Source: Gemmatimonadales bacterium
GTDB lineage: Bacteria; Gemmatimonadota; Gemmatimonadetes; Gemmatimonadales; GWC2-71-9
Direction: 5' to 3'
Assembly: GCA_037189525.1 (NCBI GenBank)
Contig: JBBCJC010000002.1
Coordinates: forward strand, 832,001-896,000
DNA: 64,000 nucleotides
Made by a program: the position numbers and the translations under genes. Below, piece after piece: positions 2-27,303 of the stretch. A model generated the notes under the pieces. That model was given only the letters and a program-made list of their open reading frames with translations, was not told where the DNA came from and searched no databases. The first letter of the stretch is position 1. Every line of letters begins with the position of its first letter.

Positions 2-3000
2 ATGGTGGCGCTGGCCAAGTATCGGATGCTGGCGCCGGATGGCCGGTGTAAGACCTTCGATGCGCGCGCCGACGGGTTCGCCCGTGGCGAGGGGGCCGGC
101 GTCGTTGTCCTCAAGCGTCTTCGGGATGCGGTCGCTGCCGGCGACCCAATTCTGGCCGTGATCCACGGCTCCGCGGTCAATCAGGATGGGCCGAGCAGCG
201 GTTTGACCGCGCCGAACGGACCGTCGCAGGCGGCGGTCATTCGCGCTGCGCTCGACAATGCGGGCATCGGTCCGGAGCGGGTCGGCTACGTCGAAGCGCA
301 CGGGACCGGGACTTCGCTGGGTGATCCGATCGAGATGCAGGCCTTGGGTGACGCGCTCGGTGCGCGCGGTACCGCGCCGGCTCTGCTGGTCGGATCGGTC
401 AAGACGAACCTGGGCCATCTCGAATCTGCCGCGGGTGTGGCCGGACTGATCAAGGCGGTGCTGTGCCTGCACCACGGACAGATTCCTCCCCACCTCCATT
501 TCGAAACGCCGAGTCCGTTCATTCCGTGGAATGAGCTTCCGGTTGCCGTTCCGACTATCGCAACGGCGTTGCCGGTGGAAGCGCCGTACTGCGGGGTCAG
601 TTCCTTCGGATTCAGCGGGACCAATGCACACCTGGTGCTTGGTCCAGCCCCTGTGCCTGCCGAGCGGAAGCCGAGCTCGTCGGTCGGCAGCGGACTCGTC
701 CTGCTCTCCGCCCGGAGCGACTCGGCGTTGGCCGAAACGGCGCGAGCGTGGGCTGCTGCGCTCGACGACTCCATGGACCTGGCGGACGTATCGTATACGT
801 CGGCCGTGACGCGGGCATCCCATCCGATCCGCGTCGCGGTCATCGCCTCGGATATTCAGGAGCTTCGCGATCGGCTGCTGGCATTGGCGGAGGGTCGGGA
901 CGTTGCGGGGGGTCGGGTTGCGCGGGTCACGCGCCGCGATCCTGCGCAGGTTGCGTTCCTGTTCACGGGCCAGGGAGCCCAATACGCCGGGATGGGGCAG
1001 GGCCTGTATCAGACGGAGCCGGTATTTCGGGCAGCGCTCGATCGCTGCGCCGCTATTGCGGCCGGTCGACTGGATGCGCCCCTGCTGGATGTCATGTTCG
1101 GCAACGGCCAGCAGCTCGATCAGACCGGTTACACGCAACCCGCCCTGTTCGCCCTCGAATACGCGATGGCGGAGTTGTGGCGAACTTGGGGTATCCATCC
1201 GTCCGGGGTGATCGGTCATTCGGTTGGCGAGTTGGCTGCGGCCTGCGTGGCTGGCGTGATGTCGCTCGAGGACGCCATGACGCTCGTGATCGAGCGGGGA
1301 CGCCTGATGCAAGCGCTTCCGGCCGGCGGAGCCATGACCTCGGTTGCTGCATCCGAAGCGCGGGTTCAGGAGGTGCTGGCTCGGGTCGGGGGAACGGCCG
1401 TCGTCGCAGCCGTCAACGGCGATGAGCAAGCCGTCATCGCCGGGCCCAAGGCCGATGTCGATCGCGTGGCGGTGGCGCTTGCTGAAGCAAGCATTCGATC
1501 ACAACCGCTGGTCGTATCCCATGCTTTTCATTCGCCCTTGCTCGACCCGATGCTCGATGCGTTCGAAGCCGCGGCGGGAAAGATTCGTTTCAGTGCGCCT
1601 CGGCTTCGCCTGATCTCGAACCTGACTGGCACCACGGCTGACGCGACCCTGCTCAGCGATCCCTCATACTGGCGACGCCATGCTCGCGATGCAGTGCGTT
1701 TCGTCGACGGTATCCGGGCGCTCGCTGCGACCAAGCCCCAGGTCTATCTGGAGGTCGGTCCACACCCTACCCTGCTTGGCCTGACCTCGGGGGCTCTGGG
1801 TAACGAAGCGGGCGTGATGGTCGGCTCGCTCCGGCGCTCCCGTTCGGACGGCGAACAGGTCCGGGAGGCGCTGGCGTCGCTCTTCCTCGCGGGAGCATCG
1901 GTCGACTGGCGCGCAGTGCATGGTGCTGGGCGGAGGGTTGTTCCCCTGCCGACGACACCGTTCGATCGCGAGCGGTGCTGGTTCGGGATGGGGAGCCAGA
2001 CTTGCGCAATTCGTCCGGCAGGTCATCCATTGCTGGGTAGTCGCGTCCCGCTCGCGACCGATGCCGTTGTCTATGAGCAGCAATTGGGTGCCGATCAGCC
2101 GGGGTTCGTGCGTGATCATCGGGTGCATGGTCGAGTCATCCTCCCCGCTACGGCATACCTCGAAGCGATCCGGGCGGCATCGAGCGATGCCGGGATCCGC
2201 GCCGTGTCGGACATCGCGATCCAGCAGGCGATGGTCTTTGACGACGATACCGGAACGACGCGTCGGGTCCAGCTGATTCGAAGTGGGCGCGACGGAACCA
2301 TCCGGATTGCGAGCCAAAGCACCGACGGTACCGGTGAAACAGACTGGACCGAGCATCTGGTAGCCAGTGCCGGATCTACCGCAGACGGTGAGTGGTCAGG
2401 GACGGATCTGCGAGCGCGAGAAGCCGCCTGCACCAACGACGTGGCTCCCGACTCGTTTTACCAGCGGCTCGATTCTGCCGGCTTGGATTTTGGCCCGCGT
2501 TTCCGGGTCGTTCGCGAGCTGCGCCATGGAGACCGCGAAGCAGTCGGTGTGGTGGTGCTGGATGACGGGCTCAGCGCCGAAGCCGGACGGTATCACATGC
2601 ATCCGGTGCTGCTCGACGGCTGCCTGCAGGTTATCGCTGCCGCGACGCCGGATACCGGTACCGACGTGTTTCTGCCGATCGGGATCGGTCGATACCACTG
2701 GGCGGATAGTGTCCGCGGCTTGCGACGCTGCATCAGCTGCGTTCGGGTGGAGGAAAGCGGTTCGCCGGACACCCTGCGGGCCTCGGTCGATGTCTATGAC
2801 GAGCACGGCGCACCCGCGGTCCGATTGACGGGTGTCCAGCTCAAGCGGGTGACCCGCGCTGCCCTCGCACGACTCGGCGAGCGTCAGGTCGCGTCGGACT
2901 TGCTGCTCGAGCCGGTCTGGGTCGAGGCAGGTGCCGATCGGGCAGCAGGCAGGTCCATGTCCGGCGCCGAGCTCTCGGCGCTTGCAGCTGCGGAGTTGCC

Positions 3001-6000
3001 TCGGCTGGCAGAAGGTGCCCGTCTCGATCGATATGACGAGTTCCGCGTCGGATTCGATGCGCTCTGTCTGGACTATGTGGTGCAGGCGGTTCATCGTCTC
3101 GGCTGGACTCCGAACCCCGGAGACGAAGTGGTCGAGACGGTACTCGCGGAGCGCCTCGGTATCATCGACCGGCACCGCCAGCTTTTCGGTCGACTGCTGG
3201 GCATATTGGCTGAAGGGGGCTACCTCGCTCGTCGCGCCGATCGCTGGCTGGTTCAGCGCGCACTCACAGCCGGTAGCCCGGATCGCGTCGCGCAGAACCT
3301 GGCCGAGCAGTTCCCGGACGGCGAGCCGGAGGTGACGCTGACCCGCCGCGCCGCGGAACACCTCGATGCCGCGCTCCGCGGGCAGCGAGACCCGCTCGAA
3401 CTCCTGTTCCCCGGAGGGTCGCTCGAAACGGCGGAGCGGGTCTATCGGGATGCCCCACCGGCCAAGGTCTTCAACGGACTTGCCGGTGCGCTGGTCGGTT
3501 CGCTGGCAGGTGCGCAGCAGGGCAAGCCCCTTCGAATTCTCGAAGTCGGTGGCGGAACGGGCGGAACGACTGCGTATGCGCTTCCCGCGCTCGCCGGTCA
3601 GAAGTATGAGTACACCTTCTCGGATGTCGGGCCGTTGTTCGTCGCCAAGGCACGCGAACGGTTCGGTAGTCATGCCGGGACCAGGTTTGCCACGCTCGAT
3701 CTCGAACGGGATCCGGGTGAACAGGGATTTGCGCCGGGTTCGTTCGATCTGATCGTCGCAGCCAATGTGATTCATGCAACGTCCGACATCCGTCGCACGC
3801 TTCGGTATCTCCGTACGCTGCTGGCCCCGGGTGGACGTATCACCATGCTTGAGGCCACCACGCCGCAGCGTTGGTTTGACCTCACGGTCGGATTGACCGA
3901 AGGCTGGTGGTGGTTTACCGATCGCGAGTTGCGCAGCGAGTATCCCACTTTGCCGGCCGACCGCTGGGTGTCGCTCCTCCAGGAGTTTGGCTTCGAAGAT
4001 GTAGCCGTGCTGCCCGGAGCGGGGCATACCGGCACACTCGGCATGCATTCGCTGATCGTAGCTGGCCTGCCTGCGCAGACAGGTCGCTGGGTCGTCGTCG
4101 CAGAAGGCGATGACGTTGGCGCCGCGGTCAAAGACGTTCTAGTGGCTCGTGGTGACGAGGTCGAGTGCATCGATAACGCCGATCAGATCGAACAGCGGCT
4201 CGGTTCGGGGAATGTGCGGGGCCTCATCTATGTCCCGCGCCTGTCTGGCCCGGGTCTGCGCGCCGGCGCGCGCGCCGAGGCCGCACTCGATGTTGCGACT
4301 GGCGGGCTTGCCGTGGTGCAGGCGGTTCTCTCGCGTGCTCCAGGCACACCGATCTGGCTCCTGACGCGAGGAGCGGTCGGCGTCGACGGAAATGAGTTAC
4401 CGGTTTCTGCCGAGCAGTCGACGCTCTGGGGTCTGGCTCGCTCGGCGATGGTCGAGCATCCGGAACTGCAGTTAACCTGTGTCGATCTCGAACCTGGGGG
4501 TGAAGGACCGCCATCGCTTACCGGTCTCCTCGACATCTTCGATACGGGCGACGAACCTCAGGTTGCGTTGCGCGGTGGACGCCGGTACGCAGCCAGGTTG
4601 AGTCCGTGGCATCCACGTACGAGTACGCTGCCGGAGACCTATTGCCTGGTACGCTCGGCGGGCAGTACGCTGGACGATCTGCACCTTGCGGAGTTGGAGC
4701 GCCGCCCGCCCGGTCCCGGCGAAGTCGAGATCGCCGTCGAGGCAACCGGCCTCAACTTCAAGGACGTCCTGAACGCACTGGGCATGTATCCGGGCGATCC
4801 GGGCCCGCTCGGCGGTGAATGCGCCGGGACGGTGGTACGGACGGGTGCCGGAGTGACGGATTTCCAGGTCGGCGACGCGGTCATGGCTCTCGCCTCGGGC
4901 AGTTTCTCCTCGCATGTGACGGTCGCGAGCCGATTCGTTGCGCGGCGCCCCGATGGCATGCCGGCGGATGAAGGGGCGGCCTTCCCGATTGCCTTCATGA
5001 CTGCCCGTTTCTGCCTGGAGCATACGGCACACCTTCGCGCCGGTGAGCGGGTTCTGATCCACGCAGCTACCGGAGGAGTTGGTTTTGCCGCCGTGCAGCT
5101 GGCGCTGGGTTTGGGCGCGGAGGTCTTTGCCACGGCCGGGTCGGAAGCGAAGCGCCAGCTGCTGCGCGATCTCGGCGTTCGTCATGTGTTCGACTCGCGG
5201 TCGCCGGCGTTTGCGGATCAGGTGCTCGCGATCACCGAGGGCAAGGGAGTCGACGTCGTCCTCAACTCGCTCGCGGGCGAGGTGCTGGATGCCAGCTTCC
5301 GGGTCATCGGGCGCGGCGGACGCTTCGTTGAGATGGGTAAGCGCGGCATCTGGACTGATGCCCAGGTTACGTCGCTTGGCCGAGAGGTCCAGTACACTGT
5401 GATCGACTGGGGCGAGACGGCGGAACGGGATCCCGCGCTGGTCGCCGCCATGCTCGAGACGTTGACGCGTGATCTGGTGCAGGGCCGAGTGCGATCGCTC
5501 CCTCGCCATGTCTTCGAGCTCGAGGACGCCTCCAGGGCGTTCCGCTTCATGGCGCAGGCCCGTCATATCGGCAAGGTCGTGGTTCGTCATCGGGCGCCCG
5601 AGTCCTTCCCCGTGCGCCGAGATGGTACCTATCTGGTAACCGGCGGCTTGAGCGGGTTGGGGCTAGCCGTGGCGAATCGGTTGTCCGAGCTGGGTGCCGG
5701 ACGGCTCGTGCTGCTCAGCAGGCGCGGCGTGGCGCCCGAGTCGGAGCCGTTACTGGCAGCAATCCGCGGCCGCGGAACCGAGGTGGTGGCCGAGTCGGTC
5801 GACGTATCGAGCGAAGCGGCGTTGCGTACCGCGCTGGACCGGGCGCGATCGACCGCTGCACCGCTGCGCGGCATCGTGCATTCAGCCGGGTCGCTCGACG
5901 ATGCCGTCTTCTCGGCGCAGAGCCGGGCACATCTCGAACATGTCTTCGGTACTAAGGTGCGTGCCGTGTCGGTCCTCGATGAGGCTACGCGATCGGATGC

Positions 6001-27242: not shown

Positions 27243-27266
27243 CTCATCGCGCGGCTCGAACATGCA

Positions 27267-27303
27267 AGAAGGGGCCGGTCTCTGTGTGAGACCGGCCCCT
27301 TCT
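27267..27303. terminator. Perfect 16-bp hairpin between convergent genes; probable bidirectional terminator ending the PKS operon
   Basis: AGAAGGGGCCGGTCTC-tgtgt-GAGACCGGCCCCTTCT. Confidence 0.85.

Follow-up and report, generated by a model that had tools for sequence, protein, structure and literature searches.

A 64,000-nucleotide stretch of the genome of a Gemmatimonadales bacterium (assembly GCA_037189525.1, contig JBBCJC010000002.1; G000:C2:832001-896000), referred to here as the window, contains four large open reading frames (ORFs) on the forward strand, each with the Pfam domains of a single polyketide synthase (PKS) module that carries its acyltransferase (AT) in cis. They are modules 5 to 8 of an eight-module line, PKS1 to PKS8, that is encoded together with a nonribosomal peptide synthetase (NRPS) in a complete cluster of 58 kb on one contig (G000:C2:800796-859303; Table 1). 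We estimate at roughly 55% the probability that this eight-module cis-AT line feeds the one NRPS and that its product is a C18, about five-fold methylated 6,6-spiroketal that is aminoacylated and exported. Such a product would likely act as a secreted bioactive amphiphile and not as a membrane lipid. Coordinates without a prefix are positions in the window, and G000 denotes the genome from which it was taken.

Five-module core and predicted product

The same five consecutive modules were found in the same order in 12 of 12 genomes in which all five are visible (the core genomes: G000, G882, G144, G151, G152, G447, G278, G298, G351, G276, G334, and G415): a module with a ketoreductase (KR) and neither dehydratase (DH) nor enoylreductase (ER); a DH-ER-KR module; a module consisting of ketosynthase (KS), in most cases AT, C-methyltransferase (cMT), and acyl carrier protein (ACP), without KR [KS-(AT)-cMT-ACP]; a DH-cMT-ER-KR module; and a (DH)-cMT-KR module. 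The core lies on two contigs in G415 and contains frameshifts in G447 and G298; G048 and G348, in which assembly gaps split it, were left out of the count. By standard PKS logic, this order places an oxygen four carbons to each side of a ketone, which is the precursor of a 1,7-dioxaspiro[5.5]undecane, so that the k-4/k+4 spacing around the ketone corresponds to a 6,6-spiroketal pattern. Where the first module of the line is fully reducing (G000, G882, G447, and G276, and G048 as far as it is assembled), an extra KR-only module is present and the spacing is kept. Module 6 has no DH in 3 of the 12 core genomes, and a hydroxyl would therefore be forced at that position in these three. Spiroketals are known to form from PKS-made dihydroxy ketones, either spontaneously or through unrelated spirocyclases (portions of PMC6490886 and PMC11134395). 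Of 75 metagenome loci, 13 had a stand-alone KS-AT-MT-ACP protein (MT, methyltransferase). ER-KR was present in the preceding module wherever this was visible (11 of 11), and the following module, where complete, was DH-MT-ER-KR (6 of 6); two modules upstream, 3 of 4 loci had a KR-only module.

In the proposed assembly, acetyl would load KS1 directly, and PKS1 would add methylmalonate with full reduction. PKS2 would then leave the C15 hydroxyl and add a methyl, PKS3 would reduce fully, PKS4 would leave a ketone at C11 and add one or two methyls, PKS5 would combine full reduction with a methyl, and PKS6 would set the C7 oxygen and add another methyl, before PKS7 and PKS8 supply a saturated four-carbon spacer. 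The chain predicted in this way is an octadecanoyl methylated at C6, C8, C10, C14, and C16; C7 and C15 bear oxygen, and C11 is a ketone. The C7 and C15 oxygens may close onto C11 spontaneously, or with the diverged PKS6 DH as a cyclase that works by dehydration followed by oxa-Michael addition of the hemiketal or by acid catalysis; the closed form would carry sec-butyl at one end, with an arm of six carbons leading to the amide. The NRPS would attach an amino acid that is probably acidic (DPRH-type code). Release by a thioesterase (TE) with a Cys nucleophile and no catalytic His would then give the predicted product, in which a C18, approximately pentamethyl spiroketal acyl chain is amide-linked to an acidic amino acid, for export by the peptide ABC transporter and/or the EamA protein.

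Gene order is read as assembly order, and handover to the NRPS probably occurs from PKS8. Across relatives, each position keeps its own type of docking head and tail, and docking domains, paired here by sequence pattern, would link the line; a PKS8-type tail and an NRPS head recur at the last-PKS-to-NRPS junctions of G048, G298, and G351. At the other end there is no loading module: PKS1 opens directly with its KS, without a docking head, and no ligase or loading ACP was found in the cluster, for which reason we infer direct priming of KS1. The choice of acetyl as starter is suggested by a Lysobacterales relative, G152, in which PKS1 is replaced by an acetoacetate-CoA ligase fused to cMT-KR-ACP (G152:C150:50457-55535, L033; TIGR01217 score of 853.8 bits versus a cutoff of 520.9, and above both NCBIfam cutoffs). 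This protein would yield 3-hydroxy-2-methylbutyryl-ACP, the equivalent of an acetyl + methylmalonyl + KR unit. In the literature searched, we found no such ligase fusion described for PKS loading.

In the first AT, the motif is VASH wherever it was readable; VASH occurs in some ATs for methylmalonyl-CoA, but also in ATs for other extenders (sections of PMC7327777). The AT motifs of PKS4 (HAYH; FASH, HAAH, or YASH in relatives) and PKS6 (LAAH; HASH in relatives) both depart from HAFH, so that gem-dimethyl groups are possible. The NRPS consists of a condensation domain (C, with HHxxxDG), an adenylation (A) domain, a peptidyl carrier protein (PCP), and a release domain. Its A-domain code is DPRHCGGQLK. 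Two DPRH codes are listed in the main text of PMC12283262, one for aminoadipate and one for Asn, and no DPR string occurs in the supplement of that paper. The NRPS also scored high against an aminoadipate reductase model, at a value below the cutoff. On account of the DPRH codes and this score, the substrate is likely an acidic or amide amino acid. Homologs of the A domain (33 to 50% identity, plus one copy at 90%) indicated no substrate.

Active-site changes and competing readings

The active-site motifs are complete in 8 of 8 PKS proteins (KS Cys-His-His, an own AT with GHSxG, and the ACP Ser), and all DH His/Asp pairs and ER motifs of G000 are present. Against this background, three changes are specific to position. 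In 12 of 12 family members, the PKS6 DH has retained its His and Asp while its LPxxx motif lacks the Pro. Among ER-linked DHs, 60 of 60 have this Pro, as do 39 of 39 DHs that come from other loci (near-duplicates among them) and CurK, CurF, and GphF DH1. Its loss in PKS6 fits a specialized role such as cyclization. In AmbDH3-type cyclases, a small residue replaces the aromatic one of the YGP motif; the position holds Val in the AmbC DH and Leu in PKS6. The KR of the module preceding the ketone module (PKS3 in G000) carries a Ser-to-Ala change in 14 of 23 orthologs versus 0 of 81 other KRs. In the NRPS TE, a Cys nucleophile is accompanied by Ser at the position of the catalytic His in 7 of 7 aligned TEs, none of which has a Ser-His-Asp triad, and G882 has the same arrangement. 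The PKS5 KR has His in place of the catalytic Tyr, a tolerated variant according to PMC7327777. A more tentative and somewhat doubtful generalization is that of a large, undescribed, cross-phylum family of spiroketal acyl-peptides, in which a fixed cassette of five modules would form the ring system, with a DH as on-line spiroketal cyclase and a substrate-assisted KR without Ser, and a His-less Cys TE would release the product, with combinatorial exchange of starter, spacer, and peptide tail.

Several points weigh against the spiroketal prediction. All of its chemical steps are predicted from sequence, and the AT specificities for LAAH and HAYH, like the A-domain substrate, are uncertain. No stand-alone spirocyclase-like gene, and no unassigned gene of any kind, was found between the phosphopantetheinyl transferase (PPTase) gene and the hairpin that closes the cluster, in a search that did not use the OssO/OlmO, AveC, RevJ, and SlnM proteins as queries. 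The 12 core genomes are related and were picked by cMT or EamA matches, and are thus no blind sample; in the metagenome loci, L078 is an exception with a DH two modules upstream of the ketone module. The LPxxx Pro is also missing in G315 and in one G144 DH that is not of the PKS6 type (a DH-KR module), and the AmbDH3 position is not diagnostic, being nonaromatic in 6 of 13 PKS6-type and 7 of 24 PKS5-type DHs. In nine of the 12 core genomes, G000 among them, module 6 has a DH that looks intact, so that the k+4 position may be dehydrated. In G882, G048, and G348, this DH is paired with an LDD-type KR, which is the normal recipe for an E-alkene. The same line with an ordinary module 6 would thus produce a methyl-alkene and leave the ketone either free or in hemiketal form; the TE would hydrolyze the acyl-amino acid or close a macrolactone-lactam onto the C15 hydroxyl (19-membered if alpha-linked). 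We consider such a linear or macrocyclic keto-enoyl lipoamide unlikely, but a serious rival. It agrees with the catalytic His and Asp of the PKS6 DH, with the existence of cyclizing Cys-nucleophile thioesterases (parts of PMC13288461), and with the assignment of the exporter to a cyclic-peptide family, but it leaves unexplained the inserted module that restores the KR-only/ketone spacing, the three relatives without a module-6 DH, and the loss of the Pro in the PKS6 DH alone. Moreover, the PKS6 KR of G000 has no LDD motif and is not the usual partner of a trans dehydratase.

The Ser-to-Ala change in PKS3 also counts against a simple version of the spiroketal prediction, because an engineered change of this kind can abolish KR activity (sections of PMC7327777). 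With an inactive KR3, a 1,3-diketone would arise and lead to a dihydropyranone, or to a 4-oxo-spiroketal, which a ketone at this position would still permit, instead of the saturated ring. The restriction of the change to this one position speaks for such an outcome, yet we regard it as improbable: all 14 of the Ser-to-Ala KRs retain Lys, Tyr, Asn, and the glycines that bind the nucleotide, the intact DH and ER motifs of PKS3 argue for continued use of the module, and the upstream hydroxyl could stand in for the hydrogen bond of the Ser. Very improbable, in our judgment, is that the cluster or its product has already been characterized. The size of the family (466 sequence clusters) would make this conceivable, but no characterized pathway name appeared among the best 120 of the 466 PKS4 relatives, and searches of the open full-text literature returned no paper on this architecture.

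Organization of the cluster

The cluster runs from a PPTase gene to the hairpin (Table 1) and is flanked by housekeeping genes, with transketolase and transaldolase on one side and an Xaa-Pro-dipeptidase-like gene and 2-oxoglutarate dehydrogenase on the other. The NRPS and the PKS genes are transcribed divergently, and Rfam gave no match in the promoter region between them. PKS5 starts at G000:C2:831270, 730 bp ahead of the window edge, and the starts chosen for PKS7 and PKS8 (14261 and 20721) are likely because they give docking-domain-like N termini. The EamA gene overlaps both PKS6 and PKS7 at its stop and start codons, and EamA homologs are present in sister clusters. Contigs from activated sludge (run X2, study P2, a separate study) that are about 97 to 98% identical to the window span all four gene junctions free of gaps, so that this stretch of DNA is real; in PKS6, 20 of the 27 listed substitutions (from 40 shown of 678 differences) are synonymous.

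Table 1. Genes and other features of the PKS-NRPS cluster (prefix G000:C2, contig coordinates; no prefix, window positions)
Feature	Position	Strand	Size	Remarks
PPTase	G000:C2:800796-801668	-
Cyclic-peptide ABC exporter	G000:C2:801496-803142	-		TIGR01194 above cutoff
NRPS, C-A-PCP-TE	G000:C2:803139-807479	-		Divergent from PKS genes
Type II thioesterase	G000:C2:807878-808699	+
PKS1, KS-AT(VASH)-DH-ER-KR-ACP	G000:C2:808699-815055	+
PKS2, KS-AT(YAFH)-cMT-KR-ACP	G000:C2:815052-820691	+
PKS3, KS-AT-DH-ER-KR-ACP	G000:C2:820688-826918	+		KR with Ser-to-Ala
PKS4, KS-AT(HAYH)-cMT-ACP	G000:C2:826915-831273	+
PKS5, KS-AT(HAFH)-DH-cMT-ER-KR-ACP	1..6817	+	2,515 aa	KR with His at the catalytic Tyr position
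PKS6, KS-AT(LAAH)-DH-cMT-KR-ACP	6814..13362	+	2,182 aa	KR non-LDD; DH with His and Asp, LPxxx Pro absent
EamA/DMT-family membrane transporter	13362..14264	+	300 aa	Pfam EamA, E 3.4e-9
PKS7, KS-AT(HAFH)-DH-ER-KR-ACP	14261..20716	+	2,151 aa	Pfam domains
PKS8, KS-AT(HAFH)-DH-ER-KR-ACP	20721..27242	+	2,173 aa	Pfam domains; C-terminal docking tail, no TE
Perfect 16-bp hairpin, 5-nt loop	27267..27303	.		Between PKS8 and the convergent Xaa-Pro-dipeptidase-like gene

A preliminary description, made from the letters of the window alone, had proposed four chained single-module genes of about 2,200 aa closed by a perfect hairpin. The one-module organization held, whereas the first gene proved longer and begins outside the window; the junctions are tight, as described, except that the EamA gene separates PKS6 from PKS7. 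Pfam domains agree with its count of three DH-ER-KR modules (PKS5, PKS7, and PKS8) and two cMTs (PKS5 and PKS6). The MT of PKS6 had the CurJ C-methyltransferase as its best match (PDB 5thy, E 9e-82), and the four MTs of the G000 PKSs share cMT motifs; a reading of the PKS6 MT as an O-methyltransferase of the methoxyacrylate type was dropped on these grounds. The expected continuation upstream was found in PKS1 to PKS4, the type II thioesterase, the NRPS, the exporter, and the PPTase. The suggested Gemmatimonadota origin was borne out as well: RpoB shares 70% identity with its counterpart in a Gemmatimonadales metagenome-assembled genome (MAG) versus 48% with that of a Lysobacterales MAG, and by this comparison the host is Gemmatimonadota-like.

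The hairpin is present as described and folds with a z score of -5.34 (0 of 200 shuffles fold equally well). It has no T-tract, and no terminator-like site was called there. Perfect stems of at least 16 bp number 29 in the genome, for which reason we see it as an ordinary terminator-like element, likely a bidirectional terminator.

Two further genes lie at the cluster edges. A small HNH endonuclease-like ORF (L002:8401-8799, + strand; Pfam E 1e-10) is located on the left between the PPTase and transketolase genes. The 2-oxoglutarate dehydrogenase/decarboxylase on the right (28691-32326, - strand) is an E2-E1 fusion (NF008907 above cutoff) that is also present in G048 and G144, with a shorter version in G151.

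Family, relatives, and neighboring observations

The preliminary description had called the line an orphan, which did not hold: the cluster is a member of a widespread family that spans several bacterial groups. Among 8,000 candidates, the MT-ACP part of PKS4 matched 466 sequence clusters at E <= 1e-105. Almost all of the best 120 have the KS-AT-MT-ACP organization, a length near 1,460 aa, and 45 to 56% identity; those with names come from Gemmatimonadales, Rhizobacter (including the isolates Root16D2, WP_056809355.1, and OV335, WP_073468447.1, which have PKS4 orthologs), Hydrogenophaga, Rubrivivax, Steroidobacteraceae, Sinobacteraceae, Xanthobacteraceae, and "Ca. Binataceae." The PKS6 cMT matched 50 of 401 genomes of the phylum, with at least three matches in 11; these 11 were inspected together with G315, G201, and G240. 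The latter three and G050 were kept outside the core count as not belonging to the family or too fragmentary. In the class of G152, 9 of 400 genomes gave a match (one genome was unscored), and G152 was inspected. With PKS1 KS-AT as the query among longer proteins, the hits besides the query itself were multimodular PKSs at 40 to 45% identity, the named ones from actinomycetes; a plasmid collection yielded one match, at 34%. No match to a characterized cluster came up in these searches or in the literature searched, in line with the preliminary description. The family is apparently undescribed, at least in open full-text literature; most subscription journals and MIBiG lay outside that coverage, and genome-mining supplements may list such clusters unnamed.

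Within the genus, 2 of 21 other genomes (G882 and G048) have a matching cluster, at the identical site (transketolase and dipeptidase 91 to 92% and 91 to 95% identical, respectively). The PKS proteins of G882 are just 42 to 63% identical to those of G000, and in a quick KS tree the KSs of G000 PKS6, PKS7, and PKS8 cluster with G144, G415, and G151 and not with congeners. Because these KSs group outside the genus, the PKS modules were probably replaced by recombination. Outside the core, the clusters have zero to two spacer modules and different peptide tails. The commonest tail is a Gly module (code DILQLG.xWK), followed by KS-AT-KR and then by a TE-bearing module, either Val-like or of another type. 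DILQLGMIWK is a Gly code in PMC12283262. Four sister clusters without a TE have one or two stand-alone alpha/beta hydrolases, pairs at G144:C4:123203-124839, G415:C34:9136-10910, and G447:C1:170545-172379 and a single one at G151:C5:73177-73962, which are candidate release enzymes. In the PKS operon of G278, a stand-alone condensation domain with two docking ends (G278:C4:476447-477961) may serve as an adaptor that links the last PKS to the Gly module. The sister cluster at G334:C1:3860476-3914855 has a ketone module without AT and a terminal NRPS of at least four modules.

Curacin-type single-module cis-AT lines are found in cyanobacteria and myxobacteria. The G000 line works like such a line ending in an NRPS: it shares with CurF to CurM the single module per protein, the docking helices, and the embedded cMT, and its best structural-database matches were CurJ (cMT) and CurK and CurF (DH), with CurL second for the KS. 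It differs in its terminal NRPS, whose Cys TE has no catalytic His, in module order, and in having no loading module or other tailoring cassette. The ossamycin/oligomycin, avermectin, reveromycin, and salinomycin lines are multimodular macrolide or polyether systems of Streptomyces with separate spirocyclases. The predicted sec-butyl/methyl ring resembles the upper ring of avermectin. In contrast to the Streptomyces spiroketal lines, G000 has single-module proteins, methyls that come mostly from cMTs, and a chain predicted to end on an amino acid. The predicted hydroxyl-ketone-hydroxyl spacing is shared with the lines of OssO/OlmO, AveC, RevJ, and SlnM (portions of PMC6490886). Lagriamides A and B, bistramide-like compounds of Burkholderiales, are spiroketal polyketides with amide-linked glycine units, and several relatives of our cluster likewise add a Gly module and then a KS-AT-KR module; the lagriamide line, however, is trans-AT (both points from portions of PMC11134395), whereas the G000 family is cis-AT, with an AT in every G000 module, and its predicted spiroketal precedes amino acid addition. 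In its predicted ring-forming logic, the G000 line agrees with the oligomycin, avermectin, and lagriamide lines without belonging to any of these.

The preliminary description had also expected a lipid-like product. The predicted chain is indeed reduced and methyl branched, but the line is a hybrid of eight PKSs and an NRPS with an exporter and not a PKS-only lipid line, and a "lipid-like segment" misses the likely scaffold because three regularly spaced positions along the predicted chain would retain oxygen. PKS5 resembles, at 36% identity, the putatively SupA-like proteins of about 3,500 aa in G201 and G240 in its KS-AT-DH-MT-ER-KR order and its His-type KR, and PKS1 is Mas-like in domain order and size (SupA is a methyl-branched fatty-acid PKS, and Mas is mycobacterial). 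Those are one-protein lipid synthases, whereas here eight distinct modules feed an NRPS and a peptide exporter, and the G000 cluster contains no fatty acyl ligase. The G201 and G240 proteins (G201:C1:652251-662738 and G240:C1:284305-294909) read KS-AT-DH-MT-ER-KR-ACP-KS-AT, and frames of this size make up most of the single cMT matches in two families of the class.

Spiroketals are common among potent bioactive polyketides, and almost no characterized chemistry from Gemmatimonadota was found in the literature searched. The G000 cluster is complete, lies on a single contig, and has a predictable scaffold. Because the family includes hundreds of sequence clusters, with PKS4 orthologs in the Rhizobacter isolates, culturing may give access to the compound class. 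The family also represents a natural experiment in assembly-line evolution, with a fixed core around which starter, spacer, and tail modules are swapped, and each of its three position-specific active-site changes (DH, KR, and TE) can be addressed with one purified domain.

Elsewhere in the window, a lower-GC stretch encodes a 609-aa protein with several bacterial Ig-like domains (45094-46923, - strand). The same genome has a second hybrid cluster (G000:C1:223229-235108; L036, L037), in which KS-AT-KR-DH-carrier follows an A-PCP-C-A-PCP NRPS that has a luciferase-like monooxygenase embedded in it, and a third condensation domain is located in a 1,328-aa frame (G000:C2:1090937-1092193).

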